64,000 nucleotides of DNA from the IMG/VR virus record IMGVR_UViG_3300030012_003218, positions 1 through 64,000 of that record; one strand, 5' to 3'. Of this stretch, positions 1,481-63,305 are shown piece by piece. How positions within the stretch are numbered: position 1 is the stretch's first letter; every line of letters begins with the position of its first letter. The notes beneath the pieces were generated by a model that did not search any database, was not told where the DNA came from, and worked only from the letters and a program-made list of their open reading frames with translations. The position numbers were made by a program, and so were the translations under genes. The DNA comes from an uncultured virus (IMG/VR IMGVR_UViG_3300030012_003218). Its lineage: Duplodnaviria > Heunggongvirae > Uroviricota > Caudoviricetes.

Positions 1481-4400
1481 TTATCCAAATAGTACGAAAT
1501 AGATTTCATATGGGTCTCTATTGTTACCTGTATCATTATCTCTAAAGAACCATTGTATTGTAGTATAATACACCTTAACTGCGATATCTGATGCTGCTTC
1601 GGTGTCTTTATATGCATTACTACCATATGAAGGCGAATCACCTGCTCTACCATAACAACTTACTATCGGAATCGCTTCCCCCGAATACAACACGTTATCT
1701 AAACTGACTTGGAAGTATTGGTCTCTATCAGTGTTACCACCCGATGAAGATGAATTAGAATATCTTGTTACAGATGAAACATTAATATGAGGGTCTTGGA
1801 CTGTTAAGGCTGTAGTGTTACCTGAATAATGAGAACTTGAAGTAAGTTTAATTCTACACATAGCTCTTGTTACAGGATATGACCTTTCTGAAAAATTAAT
1901 GTTACTATTATACCCACCATATACAGGGTCGGTAACACCACCATCTGCGGTTGAATACTTTGGAATAAAATAATCAACATACATACCACCCAACATAGTA
2001 GCCATTGGTACACCGCCAGGGTCGGTTGTAGAACTAAGGTCAACTCTAAATACTTTTTCGTCAGATTTATTTGCTTGTATTCCTACAGAATTAATTTCAA
2101 CCCCACTATTCAGTGATGTAAATTGATAAGCTAAATCTAAATCAAATTGAATTTCAAAAAGTCTATCTGACCCATTTGTTCCATCATCTTGGGATGCGAA
2201 TGCAGAATATGACCTTTTTATTCTACCATACTTAGTCCCTGAAGTCAGAGCAAGGGTGGTAATCTTAGCTAAGTTAAGATTCTGAGTAACTGACTGTGGT
2301 AATCCACCACCACCAATACTGTTGTGTGATATTATTTCGTTAGAGATATAATTTCGAAGTCCAGGCACTGTAAATGTATAAACATCGATTTCACCATAAA
2401 GTGGTTCAAGACTTACTACTGTATCCCATACTTTATGGTTACCATCTTTTACCCATATTTTTGATTCACCTACTTTAATATCTTCTATGAACAACTCATC
2501 TTCAACGGTAAGATAAAATCCGTGAGTAGGAGATACTGTAACAGACTTCCCGCTTTCGGTTGTTACTTTAATTACTTTTTCAACTGTTCTTTTTCGTATC
2601 GATGATATATGTGATACTTGTAAATATCTTGATGCTTCATCACTCCAGGCGATAATAGCGTCTCCTGCTTCAACATCTTCTGCTTTTTTGTAACTACCAT
2701 CCATCATCATGATTAGTGTATCTGCAGTAACCGATGCTGGTGGTGCTCCTTCTTCTTCAAATTCTTCTAATTCATCTCTATCTCCACCACCTGAGTCCCA
2801 TCCGTAGGCGGCTTTTGAAGATAAAAATATTTCGTGTTCCAAAGAACTTGAATTATTGTAATTGGTACTATCCCATATTTGAAACCAAATAGCCATGGTT
2901 GCGTATGAACCCTGTCCTGCGGCTTTTACTGATTTTGGTGAACTACCAAAATGTGATAATTGTAATTGATATGACCCACCTGAGGATAAAGTTCCTAATG
3001 TTTGTGTGTATGGGTAGTCTATTGTTGCGTTTTGATAAGTAGTATTATCACCACTACTTGCGTTTCCTGAAATAGTACTAACGGCTGTTGTATACCATGT
3101 ACCCGTAATACCTGTACCTGTTGAAGGTGACGATAAACTTTCCCCTGCGTTTATATTAACAAGAGGTGTTAAACTACTATCTGATAACTGTATTGCGTAG
3201 TTTTCTGCGTCAAGTATCATTCTACTACCACTTGCTACAATAGATGTATTATCTAATGTAAACTTACCAAGTGTTGCAGAATCAGAACTAATGTCCCCCG
3301 ATATAGATGCTGTTGTTGCGAACATGGCACCATCACTTTGTACATAGAACTTTCTTCTTAAAACACCATCTGAACCTTCTTCAAATCCACCAATACCAAG
3401 AGAACCACCACGAAGGTCGGACCCTGAAATAAAACTACCTGCTTGTAGTGTACCTGCCATTACTACATCACCTGATGATGATAAATGGAAGTTAGAAGAA
3501 CTAATTTCTACGTTACCAAGAGAACCACTGACGTATTGAGTATTTAAGTTACCTAATACAAATTTATCAACTCTAATATCTGCTTGTGACCCTGTAATTA
3601 AAAGTCTTCCACCATTAGGTGCTTCATTGTCCCAATTTAAGAATGAGTTACTACCACTACCTAAGAAGAAATTACCTGCGGAATCTAAGTAAGATGTAAA
3701 ATCTAATAATGTTGCGTTTGCACTTGTTAGTTCGTTATGGAATCCAAATACATCTGCGGTCATTAATAGACCTGCGTCTGCAGGACCCACACCTGTTAAG
3801 TTTTCATTTGCAAAACTAAAGTCTTGATTATCTGCTCCCGGCGGTCCTGCTCCACCTGCTGAACCAGGCGTTCCCGGCGCACCAGGCGACCCAGGCGACC
3901 CAGGCGTTCCAGGCGTTCCCGGCGTTCCAGGCGTACCATCTGTCCCGTCATCACCTTGTAGTGCGACTGCGACTGACATTGTTTTATTTAATGTAACTGA
4001 TGCTGACGTTGCTGTTATTACAACCGAACCACTAAACGGTGTAGTTGCTCCTGTAACAGTAACAGTATCACCTGATAAACCTGTAGTGATGTGAGAGTCT
4101 GATGTTTTTGATATTGTAAAATCATTCGTTACATCTGTTACACCTTGGAATACAAATATATCTGTACTTGCTCCTGCGAATGATATGATACTACCCGAAC
4201 CACTTAATGGTAACGTATGAGAATCATTTGATAAAAATGCTGTTAATGCACTTGTACCATCAGAACCAGGCGTTCCCGGCGTTCCTGGCGTACCCGAACC
4301 ACCAGGCGTTCCTGGCGAACCTGGCGTACCTGAGGTTCCACCTTGTACTTTAAATACTTTTACAGTATCAGATAATGAATCTTTTGATACTGTTATTGAT

Positions 4401-7400
4401 ATTGGTAAATCACCTTTATCTACGACTTTCCCATCTGCTGCACCTGCTCCATTATCAAATGTTATATCGAATGTTCTTTGACCCGTTCCACTTGATACTG
4501 AACCACCTAATGATGGAACACCAATTGTTCCCCCATCTGCTTTTGTAATTGTAATGTCACTCGTTCCAATCGTACCACTTAAGTTTTGTTGATTTATAGT
4601 TATGGTTACTGCTGAAGGGTCTGCGGATGTATCTGCTGCATTGTCAAACGCGTAAGCGGGACTATCTGAAAGTATACTAAGTAGTTTTGCTGTAGTACCA
4701 TCTGTTCCATCATCACCCTGTCTTGCTACAGATAGTGACATTGTTTTACTTAAAGATACCGACGCTGATGTTGCGGTAACCACAACTGAACCACTAAATG
4801 GAGCAGTTGAATTAGTAACTGTTACTGTATCGCCTGATAAAGTTGTTGTTATATGAGAATCTGATGTCTTTGAAATTGTATAATCATTCGTGACATCACT
4901 TGTTCCTTGAAACACTACTATGTCTGTACTTGCTCCTGCGAATGATATTATTTCATTTGATGAACTTAATGGTAGTGTTTGTGAATCGTTTGTTAAGAAC
5001 GCAGTTAATGCACTAACACCATCAGAACCTGCTGCTCCATCAGAACCACCTTCGACTTTGAATATTTTTACTGAATCAGTTAAACCATCTTTTGTACAAG
5101 AAATTTCTACAGGTAAATATCCTTTAGTTTGTTGCATACCACCTGCTGCTTGTCCACCAACCCACTTCAAACTACCACTTACTATACCTGTACCATTTGT
5201 TACAGTGTTGTTATCAAAGTCAAATCCTGTTACGGTACTTCCACCATTTCTTGTAATTGTAATATCACTTGCAGATATTGCTGCATTTAAGTTTTGTTGT
5301 TGGAAACTAAATATAATAGTGGATGGTGTAGGGTCGTTATCAGAAGAATCATCAAACGCAAATGTCTGTGAATCCACACTACCAATTAGTAATTTTGCTG
5401 CCGTACCGTCTGCACCTGTTGCACCTTGTACCGATTTTGCGAGTGACATTGTTTTTGTTAAAGAAGTACTACCACTTGTTGCTGTAATTGCGATAGAACT
5501 TGACAATTGGGTTAGTCCTGTTACTGTAACTCTTTTACCACTTACTCCTGAAGTAACACCGTCACCATCTACTCTTGATATTGTATAATTAGACGTTCTA
5601 TTAGTTACACCTTCAAAAACTTCCATATCAGTTATACCACCTGCAAATGAATTTACCGTTCCATCACTTGCGGCCACAAACGTATGTGATTCATTGGTTA
5701 AGAATGCTGTAACTGCGTCAGAACCGTCTGTACCATCTGTACCTGCGGTTCCACCTTCTACTTTAAAAATCCTTGTACTATCTGTTAGTGAATCTTTTGT
5801 TACTGTTACCGTTAAAGGTAGTTTTGTTTTATCACCACCAACAGTTCCACTAAATGTAATAGAACCACTCACTGTACCTGTACCGTCTGATACATCTGCT
5901 ATTAGTGTTGGGTCTGATAATGTTGCTCCACTTGAATCTGTAATTGTAATATCACCTGAACCAATTGTACCACTTAAGTTTTGTTGATTGATAATAATTA
6001 AAATATCGTTATCTTCAGCAGTAGAAGAAGATGCTGATGGGAACGAGAATATTTGAGAATCACTTGTTACAACTAATGTTTTAGCATTTGCTCCTTGTGC
6101 TCCGTCTGTTCCATCATCACCCTGTCTTGCGACAGAAAGGGACATCGTCTTTGGTAATACAACACTTGCTGAAGTTGCTGTAATAATTACAGAACCACTA
6201 AATGGTGTTGTACTATTTGTTATTGTTACGGTTTTACCTGAGGTTGATGTTGTGATATGTGAATCTGTAGAACTACTAACTGCTACTGTGTAATCACTTG
6301 TTACATCAGATACTCCTTGGAATACTACCATATCCGAACTTGCTCCTGCAAATGATATAATAGAATTAGAAGAACTTAATGCTAATGTATGAGATTCATT
6401 TGTTAAAAACGCTGTCAGTGCAGAAACACCATCGGAACCTGGCGCACCTTCTGCACCATCAGTACCACCTTGTACTTTAAATATTGTTGTTGAGTCAACA
6501 AAGGAATCTTTCTCGACTTCTATTGTTAATGGTAAATCAGTTTTTGCTAAAGACAGTCCTGAGAATGATAAACTACCACTTAGTTGTCCTGACCCATCTG
6601 ATACTACACCACCTAAAGTTGGAGTTGATATTGTGGAACCACCTGCTTTAGTAATTGTAATGTCACTTGTCCCTACAGTCGCATTTAAGTTTTGTTGACT
6701 GATTGTAAAGTTAATTACGTTTGGTGTCGCCGAATCATCTGCGAGATTATCAAACGCGTATACTTGTGAGTCTACTGTTACCGATAATGCTTTCGCAGTG
6801 TTTGATGCTGTTGCTTCTGCTAATACAGATGCTGTTGCTTCTCCAATCGCGTCTTCTACACTTGTTCCACTTTCTAATCTAATCTGACCTCTAACTGTTA
6901 AAGATGTCCCATTCCAAACTAATTTATCACCTAAAGAGAATTTTGAATCTGAACCTAAAAAGAATCCTGTATTTGTATTACCATGTGTTCCAACACCTGT
7001 AAACAGTTTAGAATCTTGCATTTTGATTCCACCAATAGAACCTGTATTTGCAACTATACCACCTTGAAGGAATACGTTATCTGTTGCTAATCCAAAGCCT
7101 GGATTTGAGTTACCAAACACATATGATGAATTTGATAAACCACTTAGGTCACCAATTCTTGCTCTAAGTGCAACATCAAATAAACCACTACCCGTTCTTT
7201 CTACTATATCCATAAATGGAGTAGAACTATCTCTTGGGTTTGCGTTCATTTTAATATAACCACTACCACTTAACCCTGTTGATACAATTACTTGACCTTC
7301 ATCATATGATTGTGATGTTGATGCTAAATCACCAACAAAACTACCCTGTGACCCACTACCATATCCTCTTGTTACATAAAGTCTACCATGTACTTCATCT

Positions 7401-9877
7401 GCTCCTGAGTTGTCACCGTCAACTGATGCTGAGTTTACTAAAATGTATTCTGTTTGGAATCCTGTTCCATCTACTTTTTTAGCTAATAATATTTCACCAA
7501 CAGTAAAACCACTTGCGTTTTTAACTGACATCGTGGTTTCATTTGCTGTAATATTTGAACCTGTAAGAGTTGTTGCGTTAGTAACCCATAATTGACCACC
7601 AACTGCGTTTACTGATTCTTTTTCAAATGTTGTTGTTCTTAATGTACCTCTAATTCTTACGTTTTCAAATTCCGCGGTACCGTTACCTTCAGATGATATT
7701 TTCCAACCTCTAAGATTACTTGCGAAATCTTTTGTTTGTAAAATACCCTCAGGTTTCATTATTAAATTACCACCCTCAATTGAATTTGTAGTAATGTCCC
7801 ATCCACCAATACTTGCGGATACAAACCTTGCGAAACCATCAGGTCTAATAGAGGATGATGAGTTTGTTTCAGTTGATGGATTACCTGCGATTACAGCAGG
7901 AGTTCTAATACTGTTTGCTGTAACGGAACCTAATATTGTTACACCGTCTGTGATTGTACCACCTTGTAGTAATACTCTTGATGCGGTTATATCACCTGCT
8001 GCTTTTAATCTTAATGCATTGTCAGATGACCTTATTTCTTCTGCAACTACTTCAAACCCTGCAATAGATGCTGATGCGAATCTTGCAAAACCATCTTGGT
8101 CAATTGACGATGAGGCGTTTGTTTTGGTTGCAGGTGCTCCATTTATTACTGCGGGAGTTCGAATTTGATTTACCGTAAGTGACGACTTGATTGTTGCGTT
8201 TGTACCAATTACTAAACTACCAGCCCCACCATTTGCATTTGGGTCTAAGTGAAAGTCAGATGAACTAATTTCAATGTTACCATCTGAACCACTCATAAAC
8301 TGACTGTCTGCCGTACCTACGAAAAACTTTTCTGCTTTTATATCTAATAAACCACTACCTGATGTTGTGAATATAAGGTGACTGTTATCGTTGTCACCTA
8401 CGAACTCCATACCAACACCATCCATTTGGTCAACCCCAACTACGAGGTTACCACTACCTGAATAAATTAAAAATCCACCAGGCCCTTTTCCAAGAGATGC
8501 TGACGTAAATCCTTCGTATCCAACTGACCTTAAGAATCCACTACTTGCTCCACCAATCTCAATACCACTACCTAATGTGTTTGATATAAAAATAGAACCC
8601 GAGATTAAAGAACCCGAACCACCTATGAATGTATTTGCGCCTGGGAAGACAACATCTTCAATCAAAACGAACTGTTCTGATGCCACACCTAATGTATTTA
8701 AAAACTCTACTTTTAAAGTTTTTGGGTCACCAATGTGTTTAGAAGGAATACTAATTGTATAAGAAAAGTTTGTGTCTGAATCTACTACATTATTTCCTAA
8801 TACTTCAAAATCACCACCAATACCTTTTGATTTTACAGATGTTCTAACTTCAGTTACTTCACCTGATATAGGAGTTATAGATGGTATTGTAATTGTACCA
8901 ACTGTTTTTAAGTTTTGTGATGTTCCATTTGAAGCAGAACTAAAGTATGTAATACTTGCAGGAATATCAAACCCATCAGAGTATCTAAACGTATGGTTAT
9001 TACTTGAGGTGATTGCTGATTCTAATCTTAGAATATCACTACCCGTTACTGCTGTAATACTTGATGTAAAAGATGTTGGTTGTGTTACTGTTCGTTGTTC
9101 AGGATATAATCTTACATTTGATAAATCAAGTCTAATGGTTGCGTTTTCCATCTCAGCATTAAATGTATCACTGTCTCCTGTATTTCTTTGTAATGCTACA
9201 TCATCTCCAAAATTAGACGCATTATACTTTACGTTGATTTCGTCAGTCGTTAGTGATAATGTTTTGTTTTCTCCTTGACCTAAACTATCACTTCCTGAAC
9301 TATCTAACTTAAAAGTAGTAAACGGTCTTAAACTTGATGATACCGTTGCTGTTGGAAGGTTTGGTGATTGAAATACAATTGTTGAAGAAGGTTTTGAATC
9401 AATTCGTACAGGAATTGTTTTAGTCCACTTAACAACTCTTTCGTTTGTTATTCCTCGACCTCTACCACCTCTACGACTTCTACCTCTACTAATTCTATTA
9501 CCATCTTGAACAGATGCTCTTACTGCTCCTATAATAGTAATTGTGGCGTCACCACTTGCTGTATTTTGTCTTTTATCGTCTCTATCTGAGTAAACCCAAA
9601 TCGTAACTAAAACAGAACCGTCTACAGATGAGAAGTTTGGAACTTCGTGATATATTGGTTTACCTTCAGAATCTTTTACCTCAATCCTAATTTGTGAGTT
9701 AGGAGCAAGTGTATTTTTAGAAGAACCCTTTATTCTAAAAGAATTTCTTCCAGGCCCCAAATAGTCGGGTAACTCAGTAATATTGAAATAATCTACAGAA
9801 TTCGAAGATTGGTCTACAATCTGTGCTTGTATCCTATCTAAATTCTGTTTACTTCTTCTTTTGTATTCTAATGCCAT
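1481..9877 (-). CDS. giant tail fibre/tail protein (2798 aa) with repeated beta-rich domains, collagen-like repeats and a Hint domain
   Basis: Rich in S/G/T; GWKI..GTAEFENVRIRG fibre motif; four repeated domain pairs; Gxy triplets; Hint motifs near the C-terminus. Confidence 0.85.
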   Translation of the reverse strand: MALEYKRRSKQNLDRIQAQIVDQSSNSVDYFNITELPDYLGPGRNSFRIKGSSKNTLAPNSQIRIEVKDSEGKPIYHEVPNFSSVDGSVLVTIWVYSDRDDKRQNTASGDATITIIGAVRASVQDGNRISRGRSRRGGRGRGITNERVVKWTKTIPVRIDSKPSSTIVFQSPNLPTATVSSSLRPFTTFKLDSSGSDSLGQGENKTLSLTTDEINVKYNASNFGDDVALQRNTGDSDTFNAEMENATIRLDLSNVRLYPEQRTVTQPTSFTSSITAVTGSDILRLESAITSSNNHTFRYSDGFDIPASITYFSSASNGTSQNLKTVGTITIPSITPISGEVTEVRTSVKSKGIGGDFEVLGNNVVDSDTNFSYTISIPSKHIGDPKTLKVEFLNTLGVASEQFVLIEDVVFPGANTFIGGSGSLISGSIFISNTLGSGIEIGGASSGFLRSVGYEGFTSASLGKGPGGFLIYSGSGNLVVGVDQMDGVGMEFVGDNDNSHLIFTTSGSGLLDIKAEKFFVGTADSQFMSGSDGNIEISSSDFHLDPNANGGAGSLVIGTNATIKSSLTVNQIRTPAVINGAPATKTNASSSIDQDGFARFASASIAGFEVVAEEIRSSDNALRLKAAGDITASRVLLQGGTITDGVTILGSVTANSIRTPAVIAGNPSTETNSSSSIRPDGFARFVSASIGGWDITTNSIEGGNLIMKPEGILQTKDFASNLRGWKISSEGNGTAEFENVRIRGTLRTTTFEKESVNAVGGQLWVTNATTLTGSNITANETTMSVKNASGFTVGEILLAKKVDGTGFQTEYILVNSASVDGDNSGADEVHGRLYVTRGYGSGSQGSFVGDLASTSQSYDEGQVIVSTGLSGSGYIKMNANPRDSSTPFMDIVERTGSGLFDVALRARIGDLSGLSNSSYVFGNSNPGFGLATDNVFLQGGIVANTGSIGGIKMQDSKLFTGVGTHGNTNTGFFLGSDSKFSLGDKLVWNGTSLTVRGQIRLESGTSVEDAIGEATASVLAEATASNTAKALSVTVDSQVYAFDNLADDSATPNVINFTISQQNLNATVGTSDITITKAGGSTISTPTLGGVVSDGSGQLSGSLSFSGLSLAKTDLPLTIEVEKDSFVDSTTIFKVQGGTDGAEGAPGSDGVSALTAFLTNESHTLALSSSNSIISFAGASSDMVVFQGVSDVTSDYTVAVSSSTDSHITTSTSGKTVTITNSTTPFSGSVIITATSASVVLPKTMSLSVARQGDDGTDGAQGANAKTLVVTSDSQIFSFPSASSSTAEDNDILIIINQQNLSGTIGSGDITITDSSGATLSDPTLIADVSDGTGTVSGSITFSGTVGGDKTKLPLTVTVTKDSLTDSTRIFKVEGGTAGTDGTDGSDAVTAFLTNESHTFVAASDGTVNSFAGGITDMEVFEGVTNRTSNYTISRVDGDGVTSGVSGKRVTVTGLTQLSSSIAITATSGSTSLTKTMSLAKSVQGATGADGTAAKLLIGSVDSQTFAFDDSSDNDPTPSTIIFSFQQQNLNAAISASDITITRNGGSTVTGFDFDNNTVTNGTGIVSGSLKWVGGQAAGGMQQTKGYLPVEISCTKDGLTDSVKIFKVEGGSDGAAGSDGVSALTAFLTNDSQTLPLSSSNEIISFAGASTDIVVFQGTSDVTNDYTISKTSDSHITTTLSGDTVTVTNSTAPFSGSVVVTATSASVSLSKTMSLSVARQGDDGTDGTTAKLLSILSDSPAYAFDNAADTSADPSAVTITINQQNLSGTIGTSDITITKADGGTIGVPSLGGSVSSGTGQRTFDITFDNGAGAADGKVVDKGDLPISITVSKDSLSDTVKVFKVQGGTSGTPGSPGTPGGSGTPGTPGTPGSDGTSALTAFLSNDSHTLPLSGSGSIISFAGASTDIFVFQGVTDVTNDFTISKTSDSHITTGLSGDTVTVTGATTPFSGSVVITATSASVTLNKTMSVAVALQGDDGTDGTPGTPGTPGTPGSPGSPGAPGTPGSAGGAGPPGADNQDFSFANENLTGVGPADAGLLMTADVFGFHNELTSANATLLDFTSYLDSAGNFFLGSGSNSFLNWDNEAPNGGRLLITGSQADIRVDKFVLGNLNTQYVSGSLGNVEISSSNFHLSSSGDVVMAGTLQAGSFISGSDLRGGSLGIGGFEEGSDGVLRRKFYVQSDGAMFATTASISGDISSDSATLGKFTLDNTSIVASGSRMILDAENYAIQLSDSSLTPLVNINAGESLSSPSTGTGITGTWYTTAVSTISGNASSGDNTTYQNATIDYPYTQTLGTLSSGGSYQLQLSHFGSSPKSVKAAGQGSYATMAIWFQIWDSTNYNNSSSLEHEIFLSSKAAYGWDSGGGDRDELEEFEEEGAPPASVTADTLIMMMDGSYKKAEDVEAGDAIIAWSDEASRYLQVSHISSIRKRTVEKVIKVTTESGKSVTVSPTHGFYLTVEDELFIEDIKVGESKIWVKDGNHKVWDTVVSLEPLYGEIDVYTFTVPGLRNYISNEIISHNSIGGGGLPQSVTQNLNLAKITTLALTSGTKYGRIKRSYSAFASQDDGTNGSDRLFEIQFDLDLAYQFTSLNSGVEINSVGIQANKSDEKVFRVDLSSTTDPGGVPMATMLGGMYVDYFIPKYSTADGGVTDPVYGGYNSNINFSERSYPVTRAMCRIKLTSSSHYSGNTTALTVQDPHINVSSVTRYSNSSSSGGNTDRDQYFQVSLDNVLYSGEAIPIVSCYGRAGDSPSYGSNAYKDTEAASDIAVKVYYTTIQWFFRDNDTGNNRDPYEIYFVLFG
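2321..2734 (-). mobile_element. mini-intein / Hint domain (138 aa) inside the tail fibre
   Basis: Block A SVTADTLIMMMDG (Ser1), block B VTVSPTHGFY, block F/G VYTFTV...NYISNEIISHN followed by Ser+1; no homing endonuclease. Confidence 0.85.
3835..4345 (-). repeat. two collagen-like Gly-X-Pro tracts (about 3835-3960 and 4255-4345)
   Basis: GTPGTPGTPGTPGSPGSPGAPGTPG and GTPGSPGTPGGSGTPGTPGTPG. Confidence 0.85.
3960..6800 (-). repeat. four tandem copies of a roughly 235-aa two-domain module in the fibre
   Basis: Alternating units AKxL...DSQxFAF...QQNL...DITIT...FKVxGG and TAFLTNESHT...SFAG...FQG...KTMS, four of each. Confidence 0.85.
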
Positions 9878-9896: not shown

Positions 9897-12800
9897 CTAT
9901 AAATATGAAACTTTTGAGAACCCGCGCACTTTACTGATATCTATTATTTGGTCAACCATATCTCGGGTCTTATCAATATGAGATATTGTGATAATAAAAT
10001 CAAACTGCGTTTTAAGGTAATCAAATAATAAATATAAAGAATTAAAGTTCTCAGTATCAAGTGAACCGAACCCTTCGTCAATGGCTATAAAGTTTGGTCT
10101 TGGTAGATTTGATACATTTATTAATGCTGTTCTGATTGCTATTGATGATATGAATTTTTCCATACCACTTGTTAATTCGAGAGGCCAATATTCATCACTT
10201 CCATATGCGATATATGAGTTGATATTTCTACCATCTGTATTTAGTAATACTTGGAAGTCTACTATTGGTGATAGTATATTGTTTATCTCTATTTCTAATT
10301 TTGGTAATACTTCGGATATTAGTTGATATGGGATTCCATCTCTTCTAACACATTTAATATAATATTCGTATCCGTCATATTTGATTTCCATTTCACGAAG
10401 TTTCTCGATTGACTCGTTAACTTGTTGTATGGAATTTTCTGCTAATGTAATTTCAGAGTTGACACTCATCATTTCATCACCAACCTCGTCTATCTTTTCT
10501 TTTATAGAATCTCGTGTGAGTTTAAAAGATTTTATCTTTTCATTTACCTGCTTGTTATGCTTAACTGCTTGTTCTTGGTTCTTTGCTTTCTGAAGTTTAG
10601 ACTTTAGTTCTTTTAACTGTATATCTAAATCTCTAACGTCTTGCATACACGACTCGTAAATCTTAGACGCAGTTAACCATTCCTTCTCTAAATCCATCTG
10701 TTGTTTAGTAAGGGTATCAAACTCTTTTAAATCGTTTTTAACGTTAAAACTATCTCTTTCATCAATAAGTTTAACTTTCTTCTCTAAAAGGTCTTTAAAA
10801 CTCTTCTGTAAGGTTTCTATGTCCTTCTGTAGTTTATCTGCTTTCTTTACGATAGGAGTATTCTTGTTTTGTACACAATGTTCACAATCATCATCGAAAG
10901 TTAATTGACCGATTCCTTCTAAAGTGTCTTTCTTATGAGTTATCTCGATATTGATGGTATCCATCTTATTATCTAAATCATTAAACTTTTTATCTAATCT
11001 ATTGAATTTAGTATCTTTCTTTTTTAACTCTTTGATATCTAAGGTTTTAAGTTTACCTTCTATATCGTTTTTAGATACTTCGATATTTTGTAGTTCTGAA
11101 AGATTGTGGTCACACTCTTTATTTTGAGTATCCCGAACTAATTCCAAATCTTTTAGTTCTTTTGAGATATCATCTACATTACCAATATCCTCAACAGGTT
11201 TTAAGTGAGTCATTTCAAACTCTATCTTAGTATTAGTATTTTCTAATTTAAGATTTAGTTCATCTTTTTTAGATTGTAATTCATCTAATGAACCTGTAAT
11301 ACTTGTTAGTGCGTTTTCTGCTTCAATTAGTTTTGTAGGAAAGTCTTGTTTTTTATATTCTCTAAGTAAAGTATTTAGTTCTCTAATCTCTTCACTTGCG
11401 AGATGATATAAATCTTCGAATATATCCATATCCAAAAACTGTGCTAATAATTCTTTTCTTTCCTTTTGAGATTTTTCTATAAACCCACTGTTATTAGATT
11501 GTGTTGACATTGCTGTTAAAACAAAATCTTCATATGTTCCAATGTAGTTTCTAATTATTGCATTTGTCTCTCTACGTTGTTCACCATTTAATGATTCTTT
11601 TTGTCCATCAATCATACGATAGAAATCAACATCAACTTTTACAGTTCCTCTTTTTGGACTTTTCTTTGCTTTTCTTTCTATAAAATATTCAACATTGTTT
11701 AACTCGAATTCAAACTTACAATCAAAATTCATTTTAGAGTAATTCATTACATCTTCTGCTCTGATTGTTCTTGAACACTTATCAAACATACAAAATGATA
11801 ATGCGTCCCATAGAGTTGACTTACCACTTGCGTTTGGTGCGAATATTCCATATGCACCTTTCATATTTGTAAAGTCAATTACATTGTTAGTTCCATATGA
11901 GAACATATTAGAAAACTCAAATCGTTTTGGAATCCACGTTGAGTTACTTACAATATTTGGTTTTCCAAGTTTGTCATTTATATCTTTATTGATATTGGTA
12001 ACTACACTTAGTTGTTCTTTTGTAAGGTGTTCTGTTTCTTCTAAATATTCTTCGATAAGTTTATTTTGAAAACCTGTATCTCTTACATTTTGTAATACTA
12101 TCGATTGGTGTTCTACATCTCTTTTACGAGTTAAAACTTTTTGTACAGTCAGTTCTTGTACTTGTGCTTGTTTTTTAATCTTTGCGATTAATCTATTAAG
12201 TTGTGAAGTTTTAGTATCTTTTACTCTTACCCTAACTCTTGGTTTATTAGGCATATAATTATCAGATACTATCTTACCATTTTCAATATCAACAGTCACA
12301 TATCCATAATCATTGTGTATTGGAACAAATTCACTTTTTAGACTTTTCATATCCCAAACTAAGATACCATGTATAGGATATTTTGCTTCACCATGATTTT
12401 GAACTATCAATGAGCCAGAATATTTTATATGTGATTTACCCATCACCTCATTGTTTGGTTTATGGATATCACCTAACAATACTAAATCATAATTTTCAAA
12501 GTGTGATACTTTTACATTTTGATTCTGTATTACAAATCCGTGTTCAGTTTCAATGTTATCAACAGGACCGTGTAACATTGCAATTCGTCCATTGTTTTTC
12601 TTGTAGTCTGTAGCGGGTGGGAATCCTTCTGACTTGTCCCATATTGATTTATGTACAAACGTGTAACCACCGATTCCAACTGCACCTGTATCTTTTACAT
12701 AGTGTAAGTTTGGGTGGTCTAATGCTTTTATGATTGGACTAAGAGCGTCTAATCTTGATGTATTGTTTAGATTTGCGTCATGGTTGCCAGGAATTACAAT

Positions 12801-16206: not shown

Positions 16207-17553
16207 TTAGAAATCTAATTTAACCTTAACTAATACTTCGTTTTGGAATGATTTCAAAATTGGTTTAGAAAGTTTAGCGATTGCGAGTAATTCATTATCA
16301 TTGTTATATAACCCAACATTCGTAATGTAAGTTTTTGGGTCACCAACGAAAGTTGATTGATTCAATCTACCCTCTGAACCTGAAATATAAGTCGGGTTGT
16401 TACTAAAGTTATATTCACCATTCTTAGCTCTAACAAAGTAGAAAGTTGATTTAACTTCTTCTTCGTTTCTTGCTTGGAATCCGTCTGATGTAGACTCGTA
16501 TGCTGAACCACTAATTGCTTCAAACAACCTATTATGGTTTTGATTATCTGCTACAGTTCTTACAGTTCCTAAAGATGCTGAATCATCAAGTGCTGCTGCA
16601 CCTAATATGATTATACCATGTTGTGGATAAACTTCACCAAATATTTCAGTTGAGTTTTGAACACCACCTACAAGAGAACCTGATACAACATTGTATTTAG
16701 TTTGTCTTGCATTACCTGCTTGATTCGTGTCACCACTATCATCAATCAATCTAAGTGTTTCACCACCTGAACCTGAAAGAACTAATTCCCAATTGCCAGG
16801 GTCTAATCTATCTTTTAATCTAGCTCTGTTAATTGCTATTGCGTAAATATCATCTTGGTTTCTATCTTGCCATTTGAAAAACTTTTGGTTAGACGGTAAC
16901 AAGACTTGTTGCATTTGTGAGTATATTGCGGATGAAGGTGAATCTTCATTTGTTCCTGCTGAACCACTACCTGCGTAGTGTCCGTATGCTACTGAGAACT
17001 GAGGTTCGTTTGTAGATACACTTGGAAGTCCATTGTATATCTCATAGTAATATGCTTTTTGAGTATTTGATAAGAACGATGATGTATGGAATACAGTTAA
17101 CTCACCACTTCCACCTGACCATAGTCCTCTTGTTACTCTCTTAGTACCACCTTCTACTACATCTTCAGTAGTAAATGCGGTATAAACTTTTCCACTACCA
17201 TAATCATATGCTCCTGCTGGAACGATTGGTGTGTCATTTGTTGCGACATCATCATTTAGTATGACATCGATTGACCTTACTCCACCACCTGCTCCTGAAC
17301 CACCACTTGAAGGTGGTGTTAGTATAGATGGTCTTGGTGTAACGGTTGGTGTTACATTTGATGCACCACCACCATTTTGAAGGTTTTGTGATAATACATT
17401 ATTTTGATTCATGTTTCGAGGTCCAATCATTCCTAAGTTAGGTCCACCTATTCCACCGAAACCACCAGCGTATGGGTTCCCACCACCAAAGAAACCACCA
17501 CCCCCACCAAGAGGGTTAGCGCCACCGAATCCGAAGTTGTTTAAAAATGCCAT
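16207..17553 (-). CDS. baseplate/tail structural protein
   Basis: C-terminal YITNVGLYNNDNELLAIAKLSKP...VKLDF paralogous to 14463-16190; located in the structural module. Confidence 0.65.
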   Translation of the reverse strand: MAFLNNFGFGGANPLGGGGGFFGGGNPYAGGFGGIGGPNLGMIGPRNMNQNNVLSQNLQNGGGASNVTPTVTPRPSILTPPSSGGSGAGGGVRSIDVILNDDVATNDTPIVPAGAYDYGSGKVYTAFTTEDVVEGGTKRVTRGLWSGGSGELTVFHTSSFLSNTQKAYYYEIYNGLPSVSTNEPQFSVAYGHYAGSGSAGTNEDSPSSAIYSQMQQVLLPSNQKFFKWQDRNQDDIYAIAINRARLKDRLDPGNWELVLSGSGGETLRLIDDSGDTNQAGNARQTKYNVVSGSLVGGVQNSTEIFGEVYPQHGIIILGAAALDDSASLGTVRTVADNQNHNRLFEAISGSAYESTSDGFQARNEEEVKSTFYFVRAKNGEYNFSNNPTYISGSEGRLNQSTFVGDPKTYITNVGLYNNDNELLAIAKLSKPILKSFQNEVLVKVKLDF

Positions 17554-17566: not shown

Positions 17567-18208
17567 TTATTCGTTTACTTTAGGTGTTACCGTCACATCT
17601 ATTTCCGCTCTACCACCTGTTTCATTACCAATAACAATAATTCTTGTATTAGTTTGTTGATTAGTTGGTAAGTTGTTTGTTGGAGTAAATATGAATGAAT
17701 TAAGTCCCGTTACTGCTAATGCTTGATTAGTAGCATATGAATTAATATTAATAATAGGTGAAGTCGTTCCTGGCACTCCTGCGTTACCTGCTACTGAACC
17801 TACATCACTATTAAGTAATATTGCTGTATATCCTAAGTTTTCATTACCACCATTTTTGGTAGTTACGTTTATAGTACTTGCTGTTCCTTCTTCTGCTGAA
17901 GAGATAGAAGTTATTGATAGTTCTATAAATGGTAACTTTACCGTTGATTTCGGTAATGATAATAATTTGTATTTCATTAAATATGAATCGTCAGTAATCG
18001 CCTCCAAGATTGGCATATTTTCAATAACGATTCCGTAGAAATCACTTCCCAATGAGTGAGCAGGATTCCAAAGGTCGTAATCGACTTCGTCATCCGCTAA
18101 TGCGAATTGGGTAATTGAAAATTTGTCTCTACCTTCCGCGAGTAATTCTCTTCCCCTCTTGGTAAGGATAGCGTCTACTGTTACAGATGAATTGTCTAAA
18201 AATCCCAT
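17567..18208 (-). CDS. baseplate/tail structural protein
   Basis: N-terminal AILTKRGRELLA...ITQFALAD resembles fibre-attachment domains; SD-like AGAGG and a late-type motif upstream. Confidence 0.6.
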   Translation of the reverse strand: MGFLDNSSVTVDAILTKRGRELLAEGRDKFSITQFALADDEVDYDLWNPAHSLGSDFYGIVIENMPILEAITDDSYLMKYKLLSLPKSTVKLPFIELSITSISSAEEGTASTINVTTKNGGNENLGYTAILLNSDVGSVAGNAGVPGTTSPIININSYATNQALAVTGLNSFIFTPTNNLPTNQQTNTRIIVIGNETGGRAEIDVTVTPKVNE

Positions 18209-45657: not shown

Positions 45658-45935
45658 TAAAAAGGTAGTTCATTTAGCCACTCTGCTATATCTTGTTTTA
45701 CTTTATCATCTTTTTGGGAGTTCCATGCTCTGTCCCATTGTTCTCTTAAATACTTTCGATGATGGGGTTCTAAGTTCATACCTTTGTCAGTGTATGCTAT
45801 TATACCCTGTAACACTGCCCATACATCTCCTCTTTGTCTTTGTGTCATTGTCTTAGAGTTCTCAATTAGACTCCACAATATAAGGATTTTTTCAGAATCC
45901 CTTTTTATATTCCATGGTGAATATTCATCCCACAT
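45657..45935 (-). CDS. hypothetical protein
   Basis: ORF coupled within the operon. Confidence 0.5.
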   Translation of the reverse strand: MWDEYSPWNIKRDSEKILILWSLIENSKTMTQRQRGDVWAVLQGIIAYTDKGMNLEPHHRKYLREQWDRAWNSQKDDKVKQDIAEWLNELPF

Positions 45936-46551
45936 CTTGTAAAAATTGTTCTATACTAATTAAACCTAAATCTTCTTCTCTGTTTGCGTCCATGACATTA
46001 AACTCATAAAACTCATTATGATTCCATACAAGTTTAGTATCAAAGAGTTCGTTACGTTTTACAATACCAATACCCCAATCAGTATCAACAACACAAACGT
46101 GTAAGTCTTTTCTTGTTGTTCTTAGATTGTATATCGCCTTCCATACAGTTCCATTCCACGGTTCATATCCGTATTCAGTTCTGTAGTTTTCTCTTGCCAT
46201 ATGTGAGGTTGGTGGATTACAATCGTGTAGTATAACATATCCGTTTGGACTTAAAACTCTTAAAGAATTTTCTATATCCTTTTTAACTTGATATGATTTA
46301 TGTAGACCATCGATAAAGATTACATCATACTTTCTATTAGGGTCGTGTTCACTTAAATACTCAAAGAACGTATCAGACTCCATTTGGTATGTAACAGGGT
46401 TTTCTTCAAACTCATAGCCAGGGTCGACACCATGTTTTAGTTCACAATTAACTTTATCAAAACAATCTACAGGATTACATACACCAATCTCAAGGTACTT
46501 TGTAAACCCATTTACTTCTATTACTTTGTTTATTATATCGTATCTTAACAT
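45925..46551 (-). CDS. class I SAM-dependent methyltransferase
   Basis: YLEIGV, GVDP, DVIFIDGLH, ILHDCNP. Confidence 0.88.
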   Translation of the reverse strand: MLRYDIINKVIEVNGFTKYLEIGVCNPVDCFDKVNCELKHGVDPGYEFEENPVTYQMESDTFFEYLSEHDPNRKYDVIFIDGLHKSYQVKKDIENSLRVLSPNGYVILHDCNPPTSHMARENYRTEYGYEPWNGTVWKAIYNLRTTRKDLHVCVVDTDWGIGIVKRNELFDTKLVWNHNEFYEFNVMDANREEDLGLISIEQFLQDVG

Positions 46552-46563
46552 AACATTTATTTG

Positions 46564-46635
46564 TACTCGGTAGGGGAATCGAACCCCTATTGCCAGGATG
46601 AAAACCTGAAGTCCTAACCGTTAGACGAACCGAGC
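46564..46635 (-). tRNA. tRNA-Glu(TTC)
   Basis: Cloverleaf; anticodon arm TCAGG-TTTTCAT-CCTGG; T-loop TTCGATT. Confidence 0.92.
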
Positions 46636-49143: not shown

Positions 49144-50622
49144 TTAAAAATCTATCCCTTCGATTGGGGATGTCTGTGAATTGTTTGCTGCTTCATACCT
49201 GTCTTGTTCAACAGGGTTTGATTTAAACGCGAGGACGTTCATGTTTTGAATAAACATCTTTCTAATATCTTCTCTTGGGTGAGTTGTATATGTAGCGGGT
49301 AAGAACTCATCTGATACTATTATGTTTTGTTTTAGTGTTGGTACGTTTGTTTCTACTAACTTCTTTGCTCCATCGTAGTTTAAAACATAACAATGAGTTT
49401 GATATGAATAACTTGGTTTGACCCAATTATCTAATCCTACATTACTATCATCACCACTAATCCTAAGTCTTGATAGGAATACTAAATCCCAATCATAACC
49501 TTCTAACTCATCAAAGGTATTCCAATGAAACTTTTTTGTTGGATTAAAATCATCTTCTAATATCAATACGTTGTTATATTCTCTTTCAACTACATCTTCC
49601 CATATTCTAATATGAGAGTGTACACCACCTGCCTCACCAACAGTTACAGGTCTTGTCCACCAATTGTTACCACTTTCTATCTTCCAATCATCATAGAACT
49701 TGATACCCATTTGTTCTCTCTTTTCAATCGTATCAAACTCTTCCTTACCATTTGTCCCTCTCCATATTCTTATCGGAACATCATTTGGTAAACCTAATTC
49801 TTTTACTCTACTGATTAATCTTTCTACGTTCTCGTTACTTGTATCTAATGTAATGACATAAACCATATCAAGTTTAATACTTCGTTCTAATCGTGTTATA
49901 TCCTCAGTTAGTGAGGTACCATATTCATTACCCGATTCAATATCCGTAGATGTTTGTTTTATCCAATTGTCATCATTGGTTGGTGGTGATATAAACTTTA
50001 ATGATGGTTTAATAAACTCCCTGATATCCTTTCGTGGATGTTTACATATTGTTGATATTAGAAACTCATCAAGTGGCATTAGATTGTTTATGAAGTCATA
50101 GTCGTATAACAACTTTCGTAATCCCTCTCGTGTCAATATGTACGCATGAGCGTTGTAACTATATTGTGGATATACCCAATGGTCATTATACTTTTGTTCG
50201 TCTTCACCATATAACCATTCGTGATTTGGTACACGTCTTCTACCTAAGTGTAAACCATCTATATCGTCAGGAATCAGACCGAGGTTGTGTAAAGACTTAA
50301 CACCTTTGAAGTCTTCTTCCAAGAACATACATACTTCGTGTCCTTCATCATACGCCTGTTTCCACATATTATAGTGACCTAATGCACATCCAACTTCACC
50401 ATCTAACATTGGACGTTCCCACCATTCGTTCCACGGATTCATCTCAGTTATTGCCCATGGATACTCATTGTACTCCATATCAGTTTCCTTACCAATGATA
50501 CCATCAACAACCTCGTAGGATGTTTTATACGGTAGGTCTAATTCATCCAATCGACTTGCGATATCATCGTAGTTTCCCCTTACGGATAATACGAATATTT
50601 TATTTATAGGTTTTTCAGTCAC
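49144..50622 (-). CDS. glycosyltransferase family 25-like protein with two tandem domains
   Basis: Occurs twice: GE.G....H...W, LE(E/D)DF, YSY..H.Y.L...G..KL, DEFL...HPR.DIR. Confidence 0.85.
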   Translation of the reverse strand: MTEKPINKIFVLSVRGNYDDIASRLDELDLPYKTSYEVVDGIIGKETDMEYNEYPWAITEMNPWNEWWERPMLDGEVGCALGHYNMWKQAYDEGHEVCMFLEEDFKGVKSLHNLGLIPDDIDGLHLGRRRVPNHEWLYGEDEQKYNDHWVYPQYSYNAHAYILTREGLRKLLYDYDFINNLMPLDEFLISTICKHPRKDIREFIKPSLKFISPPTNDDNWIKQTSTDIESGNEYGTSLTEDITRLERSIKLDMVYVITLDTSNENVERLISRVKELGLPNDVPIRIWRGTNGKEEFDTIEKREQMGIKFYDDWKIESGNNWWTRPVTVGEAGGVHSHIRIWEDVVEREYNNVLILEDDFNPTKKFHWNTFDELEGYDWDLVFLSRLRISGDDSNVGLDNWVKPSYSYQTHCYVLNYDGAKKLVETNVPTLKQNIIVSDEFLPATYTTHPREDIRKMFIQNMNVLAFKSNPVEQDRYEAANNSQTSPIEGIDF

Positions 50623-53989: not shown

Positions 53990-54787
53990 TTAGTTACTTA
54001 ATTTTGCTTTTAGTGTTTTGTGTGATTGATAATTATTTAGTTTGAATTCAAACTCACCGTTGAGGATATCTGAACTTGTGATATCCATAGTAGGTAATTC
54101 ATATCCAACTCGTTTTACTATTTCTTTTGCTTGTGGTAAGTGGTTCTTGTATAGATGTACATCACCGAAGTTTCCAATCAGATTACCAGGCTCATATCCT
54201 GTTTCTTTACATAGTACCATCAATAACATACCATAAGAAGAAATGTTAAAAGGTAACCCAAGGAAGGCATCAACACTTCTTTGGTTCCATAAGAGAGATA
54301 ACTTGTTGTCGTTACTAACGTAACATTGGAATCCATAATGACAAGGTGGTAGTGTCATAAGATGTAGGTCCTCTACATTCCAAGCATTGACAAGATGTCG
54401 CCTTCCGTGTGGGTTTTCTTTTAACGTATATAATAACTCTGTCAGTTGGTCTATACCGTTCCAATCTCTCCATTGTTTTCCATAGATTGGTCCAAGTTCT
54501 CCATCGGTCCTTCCACTCTTCTTGTAGTCACCATCCCATATATGACAGTTGTTATCCCACAAGTATTGGATATCGGTACGACCTTTCAGAAACCATTTGA
54601 GTTCTGTAGCAACAGTTTTCAAAGGCATCTTCTTAGTGGTAAGTACAGGGAACCCATCACACATACAATGTCTGAAGGAACCACCAAAAAACGATAACGT
54701 TCCTGTACCTGTTCGGTCCTGACGTTCTTCACCGAACTCTAAAATGTTGTGAATGATATCTTGGTATTGACTATCTACTCTATTCAT
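53990..54787 (-). CDS. thyA: thymidylate synthase
   Basis: DRTGTGT, ELKWF, LGPIYGKQWR, MTLPPCH, QRSVDAFLGLPFN, HLYKNH. Confidence 0.97.
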   Translation of the reverse strand: MNRVDSQYQDIIHNILEFGEERQDRTGTGTLSFFGGSFRHCMCDGFPVLTTKKMPLKTVATELKWFLKGRTDIQYLWDNNCHIWDGDYKKSGRTDGELGPIYGKQWRDWNGIDQLTELLYTLKENPHGRRHLVNAWNVEDLHLMTLPPCHYGFQCYVSNDNKLSLLWNQRSVDAFLGLPFNISSYGMLLMVLCKETGYEPGNLIGNFGDVHLYKNHLPQAKEIVKRVGYELPTMDITSSDILNGEFEFKLNNYQSHKTLKAKLSN

Positions 54788-56005: not shown

Positions 56006-56473
56006 TTAGATTACTTTTTCTGCTTTTAATTCATTTATTAATTTATCTTTGTTAGTACCCCAATGTCCGTGGATACTCTTACCACCTGTTGACTTTTCTT
56101 TTAGGTAAGGTATAACTGTTTTAGTAGGTACTCTGTAAATCTCTTTGATTTGAACACCATCCCTAATACAAAAGTACATATCTTCAGTTTGACTATATTG
56201 GTTAATCTTGTTCTCTGATAACCAATGAAACTGAAATGTACCTTTACCTTTACTCCTCAAGTTTATTGCTTTATACTCGACAGGTTTCTTTTTGACAGGG
56301 TCGTATGCGTCACCACCCTGTGTGTTGTTACCGTACTCATGACCCAATTCATTTGCAATCATAAGTTCGACAAATCGTTCATTGTAGAAAATGTTTTCAA
56401 GTCCCAACTCATCTTGTGCGAGGTCTTGAGCCTGTTTCAACAGACTTTTAATCTTTGTAACTGTTTTATTCAT
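56006..56473 (-). CDS. PvuII-like PD-(D/E)xK endonuclease
   Basis: Collinear with R.PvuII as I recall it: QDLA..LG..NIF, GGDAYD...VEYKAIN, FCI..G..I.EIYR; similar length (155 aa). Confidence 0.7.
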   Translation of the reverse strand: MNKTVTKIKSLLKQAQDLAQDELGLENIFYNERFVELMIANELGHEYGNNTQGGDAYDPVKKKPVEYKAINLRSKGKGTFQFHWLSENKINQYSQTEDMYFCIRDGVQIKEIYRVPTKTVIPYLKEKSTGGKSIHGHWGTNKDKLINELKAEKVI

Positions 56474-57372: not shown

Positions 57373-58296
57373 TTAGTTTCCACCTCTTCTACCTGATGAG
57401 GAACTTGAACTACCGCCTGACGAACTTCCTCTACTACTACCACCTACGTTACCACCCCTGTTGATGTTTACAGGTGGGTTACTGTTAAAGTTATTAACAG
57501 GTGGTCTTCCGTTGTTGAAGTTGTTGTTTGGTACTCTTGGTTTGATATTCCAATTGTTATTGTTGTCATTTNNNNNNNNNNNNNNNNNNNNNGTTGGTTT
57601 GATTGGGACAACAACATTATTATTACTATTTACGTTGTTAGGTCTGTATATAGTATTGTTAGGTATATTATTATCTCGACTCCATCTGATAACCTCGTTA
57701 ATAGCATTGTTATCAGGGTCAGGGTATACTCTGTTATTTCTTCTTCGGTTAGTATCTTGTTCTATATTAGAGTTACCGATAAGAAAATCATTATACCTAC
57801 TTCCCCTTCTACCACTAACATATGCGATATCAGGTTCGTTGTACCAACTGTAGTCATAGTGATTCCACATATTCCATCCATAAGGATAATCATAATGGAT
57901 TCCCCAATACCTGTTAGACTTTACCCACCATGGGTGGTCCCATCCAAACCAAGGATAGTTAAAAGCCCAATCATACCAAAACTGATGACTATGAAACCAT
58001 ACATCAAATCTGTTGTAAGGTCTCCATATACCATCGAGTCTTGGATTGTTGAAATACCACGAATAGGGTCTTGTCATCGCGTACTGAGCGAAGTCCCATC
58101 TGAAAGAGAAGTCTGTTCGGAGTTTTCTCTTGAGTTGGAACATATTGTTGATAGTATCTATCTTAACTGAACTGTCTACCTCTATATACCTGTCATACAT
58201 AGGGTCATGATTTGTAGTACTCACATACCACTGACTACCACACCCTGAAAAAAGCAGGGAAATAAACACAAATACACTAAAATAAAAATACCTCAT
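57373..58296 (-). CDS. lipoprotein with a W/Y-rich core and an N/R/G/S low-complexity tail
   Basis: Signal peptide with lipobox FSG-C; contains a 21-N assembly gap. Confidence 0.7.
   Translation of the reverse strand: MRYFYFSVFVFISLLFSGCGSQWYVSTTNHDPMYDRYIEVDSSVKIDTINNMFQLKRKLRTDFSFRWDFAQYAMTRPYSWYFNNPRLDGIWRPYNRFDVWFHSHQFWYDWAFNYPWFGWDHPWWVKSNRYWGIHYDYPYGWNMWNHYDYSWYNEPDIAYVSGRRGSRYNDFLIGNSNIEQDTNRRRNNRVYPDPDNNAINEVIRWSRDNNIPNNTIYRPNNVNSNNNVVVPIKPXXXXXXXXNDNNNNWNIKPRVPNNNFNNGRPPVNNFNSNPPVNINRGGNVGGSSRGSSSGGSSSSSSGRRGGN
57572..57592. other. assembly gap (21 N)
   Basis: Run of N within an Asn-codon-rich tract. Confidence 0.99.
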
Positions 58297-60800: not shown

Positions 60801-60803
60801 CTT

Positions 60804-62822: not shown

Positions 62823-63305
62823 TTAGTCATCCATTTCTAATTTACGTTCAAAGTACTGAGCAGAGTCCTGTATTTCAGGATTCTGTTTGATTGTTTGCAT
62901 TGCAATCATATCTTTCATTTTAGTCGTTGACCAACCATGTGCTCTTGTCGTATATACAATCTTTGGTGGTAAGTCATCACCTGTAAATGATTTTCCTATG
63001 TAGTCCTCACCTAAGATTCTTACATCGGGTTTGAAAAACTTAATCAATTCGTAAAGTTCTTCTTCCGTCTGATAAACATAAACTTCGTCAATATATTGTA
63101 TTGCCATCAATGTACGATATCTTTCGTATAATGGAATCACGGGTTTATATTTTGACTTCCTATGAAGTGACGGGTCTCTTTGTAAAAACACTATGAAATG
63201 GTCACAGTGTCTTTTCGCCTCTTGAAAGGTGTATATATAGCCAGGATGAATCAAATCAAAATTACCTGCTGTACATCCTACTATTTTACTCTTTTTCTTT
63301 CCCAC
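62823..63305 (-). CDS. glycerol-3-phosphate cytidylyltransferase-like protein
   Basis: AGNFDLIHPGY, ER...L, IDEV, LGEDY, R.HGWSTT. Confidence 0.85.
   Translation of the reverse strand: MGKKKSKIVGCTAGNFDLIHPGYIYTFQEAKRHCDHFIVFLQRDPSLHRKSKYKPVIPLYERYRTLMAIQYIDEVYVYQTEEELYELIKFFKPDVRILGEDYIGKSFTGDDLPPKIVYTTRAHGWSTTKMKDMIAMQTIKQNPEIQDSAQYFERKLEMDD

Follow-up and report, generated by a model that had tools for sequence, protein, structure and literature searches.

A lineage of marine T4-like phages avoids many restriction-type words, and those starting with C survive only beside a flanking G

We analysed a 64,000-bp window of DNA from an uncultured virus, comprising bases 1-64000 of a virus contig of 76,075 bp (IMG/VR IMGVR_UViG_3300030012_003218; hereafter G000). 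The window is part of a marine T4-like phage genome of ~181 kb. We show that this phage avoids a whole set of short DNA words, that the avoided words starting with C obey a single flank rule (they survive only where a G immediately precedes the first C on one of the two strands), that this flank is under selection, and that the pattern is spread across several related clades. The explanation we favour, to which we give about even odds (a probability of roughly 0.5), combines restriction-site avoidance with a GpC-directed modification of the phage DNA that would shield the sites it overlaps.

CCNGG sites persist only with a flanking G or C

A sequence-only reading of the window had claimed that CCNGG occurs solely as GCCNGG or CCNGGC, and the full site list bears this out. 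All 49 CCNGG sites in the window (2016..63245) have a G at -1 or a C at +1; read on the plus strand, 38 are flanked only as CCNGGC and 11 only as GCCNGG, with none carrying both flanks and none carrying neither. The pattern extends to the whole contig, where 54/54 sites conform, again with no double-flanked and no unflanked site. The positions given in that reading agree with ours to within 1-2 bases, apart from one (61085) that is really 61105. Its codon examples are right when taken on the reverse complement, since the sizeable open reading frames (ORFs) of G000 all lie on the minus strand.

The same reading had seen no HCCNGGD site, and there is none. We compared this with 200 shuffles in which synonymous codons were permuted, retaining every protein sequence and the codon usage. 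These shuffles gave an expectation of 60.7 +/- 4.3 HCCNGGD sites in G000, with a minimum of 49 and a range of 49-71. Markov models of order 0-2 gave 44-66 expected sites, and a model of order 5 gave 9.3. Conforming CCNGG sites are five times over-represented, with 54 observed vs 10.8 +/- 2.5 (maximum 20) in the codon shuffles.

CCNGG is a conspicuous case because the dipeptide Pro-Gly cannot be encoded without it. In-frame Pro-Gly accounts for 51/54 sites, with exactly one GpC at each. Every one of the 51 either has a G-ending codon before the proline or uses GGC for the glycine, as had been proposed: 40 combine a G-ending preceding codon with GGA, GGT or GGG, the other 11 combine a preceding codon not ending in G with GGC, and none has both solutions or neither. 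Both solutions are indeed rare choices. G-ending codons make up 13% of all codons vs 78% (40/51) of those preceding Pro-Gly, and GGC makes up 1.3% of glycine codons (22/1680), with 11/22 of these coming after Pro.

The CCTGG that had been pointed out in a tRNA-Glu is real and conforms; the gene lies at 46563..46635 on the minus strand, with a G directly before CCAGG at 46593 (TTG-CCAGG). Likewise, the statement that CCGG is confined to GCCGGG is correct, all seven CCGG lying inside CCCGGC (GCCGGG on the coding strand). A single ORF of 2798 amino acids (1481..9877, minus strand), with collagen-like Gly-X-Y repeats (PF01391) and an intein splicing domain (PF14890, amino acids 2391-2519), houses 18 CCNGG sites at 9-base spacing (3837-3931 and 4266-4324).

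Many other words follow the same rule

The earlier reading had treated CCNGG as the unit. The CCNGG rule reduces to two distinct rules, one for CCWGG and one for CCGG (which also accounts for CCSGG), and these belong to a much wider set of avoided words. In G000, GATC is absent vs about 210-235 expected (210 in the codon shuffle), CTAG occurs three times vs 146-184 (146 in the codon shuffle), TTATAA is absent vs 45-68 (45 in the codon shuffle), ACATGT is absent vs 11-38, and CCGG occurs seven times vs 44-53 (44 in the codon shuffle). CCTCC/GGAGG occurs twice vs 66 expected, CCAGT and ACTGG jointly 0 times vs ~102, and HCCAGA and TCTGGD jointly 0 times vs 112 in the codon shuffle. As asymmetric words are missing in both orientations while the genes all lie on one strand, the target must be double-stranded DNA, which excludes a cause at the RNA level.

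An unbiased search across all degenerate 7-mers ranked HHCYRGW first, with 0 occurrences vs 584 expected (both strands counted). CYRG sites (CCAG/CTGG, CCGG and CTAG) without a neighbouring GpC number 0 vs 405 expected. Sites that abut a G on the 5' side or a C on the 3' side number 54 vs 93 expected, and 24 fall in an apparent class with an adjacent GC. We considered CYRG as a single 4-bp unit with an 'adjacent GC' escape and rejected it: an adjacent GC fails to protect CTAG and CTNAG, and the class consists of G-flanked CCWGG. With the GC one base further out, no rescue was seen in either of two relatives described below, for CTAG in G001 (0 vs 16.7) and in G002 (0 vs 18.7), or for CTNAG in G002 (0 vs 22.9).

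What remains is a rule about one base. Within the clade of G000 (the focal clade), CTAG, CCGG, CCWGG, CGWCG, CCTCC and CCAGW persist only where the first C is immediately preceded by G on one strand, and the tolerated contexts are GCC, GCT and GCG. The three CTAG sites of the window (16820..16824, 31028 and 48451, the last inside a tRNA-Ala) are all CTAGC, that is, GCTAG on the opposite strand. Both CCTCC sites (18001..18005 and 20137) are GCCTCC, and GGAGG is absent on the plus strand. Each of the three CGWCG sites (4760..4764, 21068 and 37130) is preceded by G or followed by C, and the seven CCAGA/TCTGG sites (12415..12419, 20410, 43544, 51239, 42768, 44275 and 44447) are always GCCAGA, with CCAGT/ACTGG at 0. 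In G001, CCGG is GCCGG in 13/13 cases. The forbidden set is symmetric, in that a site is avoided when H precedes it and D follows it.

The words split cleanly by their first base. All seven C-initial avoided motifs have G-flanked survivors; there are no such survivors for the A/T-initial TTATAA, ACATGT and ACGT, nor for GATC within the focal clade. No GpC overlap is possible at GATC, TTATAA or ACATGT, and all three are at zero in the focal contig. A flanking G does not help these words: G-flanked ACATGT occurs 0 times vs 31-33 expected, and GGATC, in the focal clade, 0 times vs 221. Placing a C after ACATGT or TTATAA likewise gives no rescue, and GATCC is also absent from the focal clade.

A requirement for a particular base at -2, before the protective G, was dropped, as A, C, G and T all occur there. 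In G001, T is found at -2 in 0/29 G-CTAG and G-CCGG sites, though T is the commonest base before GCY. In G002, T at -2 is common (37/61 for CTAG), and it also occurs before G-CCWGG.

The escape is shared by clades with different avoided words

We compared G000 with relatives; IMG/VR contains 26 related loci, and the records are metagenomic virus contigs. G001 is a 180,769-bp relative, 94% complete, which is colinear with G000 at ~91% nucleotide identity. G002 (186,631 bp, 98% complete) has a baseplate protein 72% identical to that of G000, and G003 is a 74 kb fragment that is 80% identical (the 80% clade). The closest named phage is Microcystis phage Mel-JY01, with 49% identity in a baseplate wedge protein, followed by Flavobacterium phage immuto (40%). 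A megablast search with 8 kb of G000 found no match in the phage collection.

Throughout the 94-100% clade there are 0 unflanked CYRG sites, where ~640 would be expected in the 95% group (116.6 kb); the 100%-identical loci likewise have none. Over the whole G001 contig, the unflanked violations amount to one CTAG (180511) and two CCWGG (179054 and 92747). The set of avoided words changes outside this clade. In the 80% clade, CCAG is hardly avoided (114 vs 170) and ACGT is missing (0 vs 47); unflanked CTAG is reduced to 5 vs 108 with G-flanked CTAG at 28 vs 34, and in G003 the corresponding counts are 2 vs 45 and 7 vs 13. G002 does not avoid CCGG or CCWGG. It purges unflanked CTAG (3 vs 281), CTNAG (0 vs 344) and CGWCG (0 vs 62), with flanked sites at 61 vs 99, 62 vs 121 and 4 vs 22, respectively, and ACATGT is absent in any context (0 vs 91).

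Among the outgroups, Mel-JY01 avoids GATC, CTAG and GGWCC, and a flanking G offers no escape there (CTAG with the flank, 0 vs 18); this phage encodes one C5 and several N4/N6 methyltransferases. Neither immuto nor LR756508 shows comparable avoidance. The avoided word set is therefore clade-specific, while the 5' G escape is common to the 72-100% clades and absent outside them. Carried over to related phages, the pattern first read in the window thus holds in part: the G-flank escape recurs in sister clades, the avoided cores differ there (CTNAG, ACGT), and the outgroups lack the escape.

The last 2 kb of G001 (L069) clusters the CCWGG at 179054, the CTAG at 180511 and the only TTATAA of the contig (179730). 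This part also has a second DUF6734 gene, like one at the contig start, and may be a chimeric or variant terminal region.

Selection on the flank

Comparison of relatives shows that the flank itself is maintained. Between G000 and G001 (91% identical), 28/31 alignable CCNGG sites retain the same flank solution, and in the other 3/31 the site and its flanking G or C are lost together. We also aligned 27 unflanked CYRG sites of an 80%-clade relative to G000, where 21 are destroyed (mostly at third codon positions), five are re-flanked with a G or C, and one is lost to an indel. Selection in this lineage has been very strong and fast: between relatives with baseplate proteins at 80% and 95% identity to that of G000, ~400 sites in 76 kb were lost or given a new flank.

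GpC modification as a possible shield

Avoidance with a selected, flank-dependent escape is well supported by these counts. As for its cause, we infer that host restriction-type nucleases select against short target sites, and that the phage genome has been stripped of them. The C:G pair of every GpC in the phage DNA would be modified, shielding any site that it overlaps, in a manner analogous to M.CviPI or the phage GpC[C/T] C5-methyltransferases; the enzyme could be encoded by the phage or by its host. One modified outer base pair, giving a hemi-modified site, would have to be enough to block cleavage. GATC, TTATAA and ACATGT, which cannot overlap a GpC, would have no shield and hence would be eliminated. 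A single flank rule governs many unrelated words, and does so in clades that differ in their word sets; the simplest cause would lie in the phage DNA and not in each nuclease separately.

This extends a proposal made from the CCNGG sites, that a marked outer C in a GC context lets unavoidable sites persist. The proposal gains from finding the same escape on six or more further motifs unrelated to CCNGG, as well as in sister clades with different avoided motifs; it suffers from the lack of a modifier, and overall the earlier interpretation is partly supported.

GpC is a special dinucleotide in these genomes in other respects. Its odds ratio, rho(GC), reaches only 0.54-0.61 in the focal clade, compared with 0.71-0.77 for sister clades and 0.89-1.03 for the outgroups, and conserved NGC codons number 19 between G000 and G001 vs 1162 for NGT, a difference of about 60 times. 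The most depleted GC-containing words are those of the form RGCY (AGCT, AGCC/GGCT and GGCC), at 0.12-0.26 of the composition expectation, with AGCA/TGCT and CGCA/TGCG near 1. RGCY depletion may possibly come from methyl-directed nucleases attacking the mark, an idea that draws on the known specificities of such nucleases. More tentatively still, one can imagine a widespread lineage of marine T4-like phages that marks every GpC with an enzyme recognised by no current family model, or that borrows a host mark. GpC would then be a costly shield, purged elsewhere and installed once per unavoidable site, with methyl-directed nucleases behind the RGCY depletion. We offer this fuller picture as speculation that is less likely than not.

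If there is indeed a GpC shield, then a DNA modification specific for a dinucleotide, in phages that have not been cultured, can be read from the genome sequence alone, together with the restriction repertoire of their hosts. The statistic is simple (avoided sites surviving per flank base) and could be applied to all viral contigs to find hidden modification systems, whose genes could then be located by phylogenetic profiling.

Evidence against a GpC mark

Several results weigh against a GpC mark, the first being that we found no enzyme to make it. Searches with PF00145 (C5) and PF01555 (N4/N6) gave no match in G000, G001 (94% complete), G002 (98% complete) or G003; the same PF00145 search matched Mel-JY01 and 9/14 control genomes. 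Pfam scans of the ORFs of G000 and G001 (at least 90-100 amino acids; G002 was not scanned ORF by ORF) found no DNA methyltransferase, Tet_JBP, TGT/Que or dnd domain. The phage methyltransferase suggested by the sequence-only reading, cytosine-specific or otherwise, was thus not found with these two families in the contig or its near-complete relatives.

Two Methyltransf_24 proteins are labelled 'DNA methyltransferase' by PHROGs, and neither is conserved across the clades sharing the rule, both being missing from G002. The one in the window (45925..46551, minus strand) is a weak candidate modifier that we rejected as a DNA methyltransferase. In its predicted structure (predicted local distance difference test score of 91.5), the nearest folds are cation-dependent O-methyltransferases and TrmR (template modelling scores of 0.47-0.58), placing it closest to small-molecule and tRNA O-methyltransferases.

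The GATC survivors of the 72-80% clades are also hard to reconcile with a GpC mark. All 19/19 are GGATC or GATCC (13/13 in G002 and 6/6 in loci L012, L017, L019, L022 and L023), a G-flank effect that involves no GpC. Moreover, GC-containing words, which a mark ought to protect, nevertheless show a 3-8 fold depletion (AGCT 91 vs 342, AGCC 95 vs 408), as do AAGCTT in G001 (3 vs 42) and GTGCAC in G002 (1 vs 24). Given the several-fold depletion of such words, any protection would be incomplete. A 5-methylcytosine deamination signature at GpC was looked for between strains and rejected, as there is no C/T excess (six differences vs 19 conserved C, with other contexts similar). Together with the thymidylate synthase and the oxygenases described below, these results (no modifier, GATC survivors without GpC, depleted GC-containing words and no GpC hypermutability) are why our confidence in the modification step is only about one half.

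Other modification and repair systems were considered and rejected. No dnd, TGT or Que domains were found in the G000/G001 Pfam scans, which speaks against phosphorothioate and 7-deazaguanine systems. A dCMP hydroxymethylase, with replacement of C throughout the genome, is not indicated by the thymidylate synthase homologue (53990..54787, minus strand), which is a genuine ThyA type: it scores above the TIGR03284 cut-off and retains the Asn of its PFNISSY motif. Very short patch repair (VSR-type) bias is expected to enrich CCAG, and CCAG is depleted here, the opposite of that expectation.

Alternative explanations

The alternative that survives best involves no modification. Host nucleases, or one defence system, would simply fail at sites with a 5' G, their true targets being HCTAGD, HCCGGD, HCCWGGD and so on; this generalises the HCCNGGD nuclease of the sequence-only reading. 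The symmetry of the forbidden set, H before the site together with D after it, looks as though a dimeric enzyme needed two acceptable half-sites, and both the G-flanked GATC survivors of the sister clades (19/19, without GpC) and the failure to find a modifier gene are as this explanation would have them. However, at least seven unrelated specificities (CTAG, CCGG, CCWGG, CGWCG, CTNAG, CCTCC and CCAGW) in three clades would need the same 'not G' rule. Nor should A/T-initial sites then be free of any flank effect (as in G-flanked ACATGT), GGATC be missing from the focal clade, or a CTAG-avoiding outgroup lack the G-flank escape (0 vs 18). In its original form, a single nuclease reading HCCNGGD, the idea fails to explain an identical flank rule on CTAG, CGWCG, CTNAG and CCTCC. 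We therefore think a set of flank-intolerant nucleases unlikely. If there is no modification, the sharing of a 'not G' flank rule by nucleases of so many specificities would be a puzzle that merits study in its own right.

A second alternative keeps the modification but makes it broader or bulkier, for instance a glycosylated C or G that is not specific to GpC and blocks mainly when it is the next base 3' of the site, whichever strand is read. Recast in this way, the rule asks for a C right after the site on one strand or the other, and would then also cover GATCC in the sister clades; the phage has many glycosyltransferases and sugar-nucleotide enzymes. Against this, a C after ACATGT or TTATAA gives no rescue, GATCC is absent in the focal clade, the thymidylate synthase resembles an authentic ThyA, and neither a dCMP hydroxymethylase nor a TET turned up. 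The glycosyltransferases of G000 and G001 belong to general families only, and their 2-oxoglutarate (2OG) oxygenases are P4H/PhyH-like. The GT25 glycosyltransferase fused to a 2OG-Fe(II) oxygenase region (49144..50622, minus strand), together with the P4H-like oxygenases, probably suits hydroxylation and glycosylation of the collagen-like proteins better than DNA modification. All this makes a broader modification quite improbable. Several further P4H/PhyH-like oxygenases are present, including those at L001 8688-9236 and 4667-5365.

A third alternative is self-avoidance. The window encodes a 155-amino-acid homologue of the PvuII family of endonucleases (56006..56473, minus strand; PF09225, 27.8 bits vs a cut-off of 25), and if this nuclease were aimed at host DNA and cut the avoided sites, the phage may have purged its own copies. 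Alignment to PvuII chains shows the catalytic D...E-x-K to be kept, along with only 1/3 consecutive His. The distribution of the gene also fits: G000 and G001, where CCGG, CCWGG and CCAG are avoided, have it, and G002 and Mel-JY01, where they are not, lack it. This correlation stems from a single phylogenetic split, however, and the ~10 avoided motifs, some of them asymmetric, are beyond one homodimeric enzyme. In addition, the G-flank rule holds in G002, which is without the gene, and CAGCTG is not avoided (9 vs 13.4 in G001). Self-avoidance is thus very unlikely to be the cause.

No methyltransferase domain was found in the ORFs adjoining the PvuII-like gene, and no PF01555 in the genome; a tblastn search of the protein against phages gave no match. 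An adjoining 288-amino-acid ORF (55129-55995, minus strand) has a weak ParB-N-like match. It is found in G000 and not in G001, as a ~0.9 kb insertion, and may be a mobile gene.

Finally, base composition, codon usage or amino-acid content might be imagined to produce the pattern as an artefact, without DNA words being selected, since the genome is AT-rich and GpC and NGC codons are generally rare, yet this can be dismissed because protein- and codon-preserving shuffles give 49-71 violating sites vs 0, GpC rarity predicts fewer flanked sites rather than the 54 seen vs 10.8, and close relatives of 80% protein identity carry violating sites at about the expected rate.

Relation to known systems

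Avoidance of restriction sites is well known in phages, and the present case resembles it in that short palindromes fall far below codon-aware expectation, symmetrically on both strands, with a word set varying between related clades. It differs in being near-absolute for ~10 words at once (0 of hundreds expected) and in that the survivors fall under a single flank rule. Overlapping methylation is also known to block restriction enzymes, as with overlapping Dam or Dcm methylation, and methylation of the outer C of CCGG blocks MspI. There too, the methyl group comes from an enzyme whose own specificity overlaps the site, and the flanking base decides which sites are protected; here, by contrast, such protection is deduced from genome evolution alone and would hit many enzymes through a 2-bp specificity.

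The purged words include natural targets of known enzymes. ScrFI, EcoRII and SsoII-type enzymes target CCNGG or CCWGG and MspI/HpaII-type enzymes target CCGG, and CCWGG and CCGG sites are among those purged here. Unlike what ScrFI/EcoRII-type enzymes would lead one to expect, the phage rule is not specific to CCNGG, as CCSGG falls under the CCGG rule and CCWGG has its own.

The closest parallel to a GpC mark is found in C5-methyltransferases. Burke et al. 2021 (PMC8256090) describe phage C5-methyltransferases (clades I-II) specific for GpC[C/T], GpC[C/T/G] or any GpC, as well as the chlorovirus M.CviPI, and propose protection from host restriction. A specificity for GpC, GpC[C/T] or GpC[C/T/G] would modify the first C of exactly the tolerated GCC, GCT and GCG sites. 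Survival in these genomes is confined in the corresponding way, to sites with a G directly at -1, although this signature is indirect. Unlike the C5-methyltransferase and TET systems, there is no PF00145 in the contig or its near-complete relatives, and no TET/JBP partner in the G000/G001 Pfam scans.

Restriction-site avoidance and protection by overlapping methylation are thus both already known. The new element is the near-absolute purge of many motifs with a single 5'-G escape rule, pointing to a GpC mark without a recognisable enzyme. A full-text literature search, judged on titles and abstracts, returned no earlier description of flank-dependent escape, which is weak evidence that it is unpublished.

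Gene content of the genome

The genes of G000 are a T4-like myovirus set, including baseplate wedge proteins, gp25, an SbcCD-like nuclease and a primase. The contig also encodes endonuclease VII/I-type enzymes, thymidylate synthase, four tRNAs and many sugar-modifying enzymes. G001 carries the gp23 capsid protein, the gp20 portal, gp19, gp32, PolB and UvsX, and two further collagen-repeat proteins, each of more than 1100 amino acids.

The chaperone and protease set is complete, with GroEL, GroES, ClpP, HSP20 and ClpS (L001 2-1528 and 2889-3170, minus strand; window 32381-33034 and 36523-36888; L001 11071-11322). Several cytidylyltransferase-like genes, an APS-kinase-like gene, a GNAT and a thioesterase are found in the window (44143-45657, 52579-53049, 62823-63305 and 3-788). 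G001 additionally has a UDP-galactopyranose mutase, epimerases and a CMP-sugar synthetase fusion, making for a large glycan-building repertoire overall. A run of 21 N at 57572-57592 falls within an ORF of 307 amino acids (57373-58296) that has no family match.

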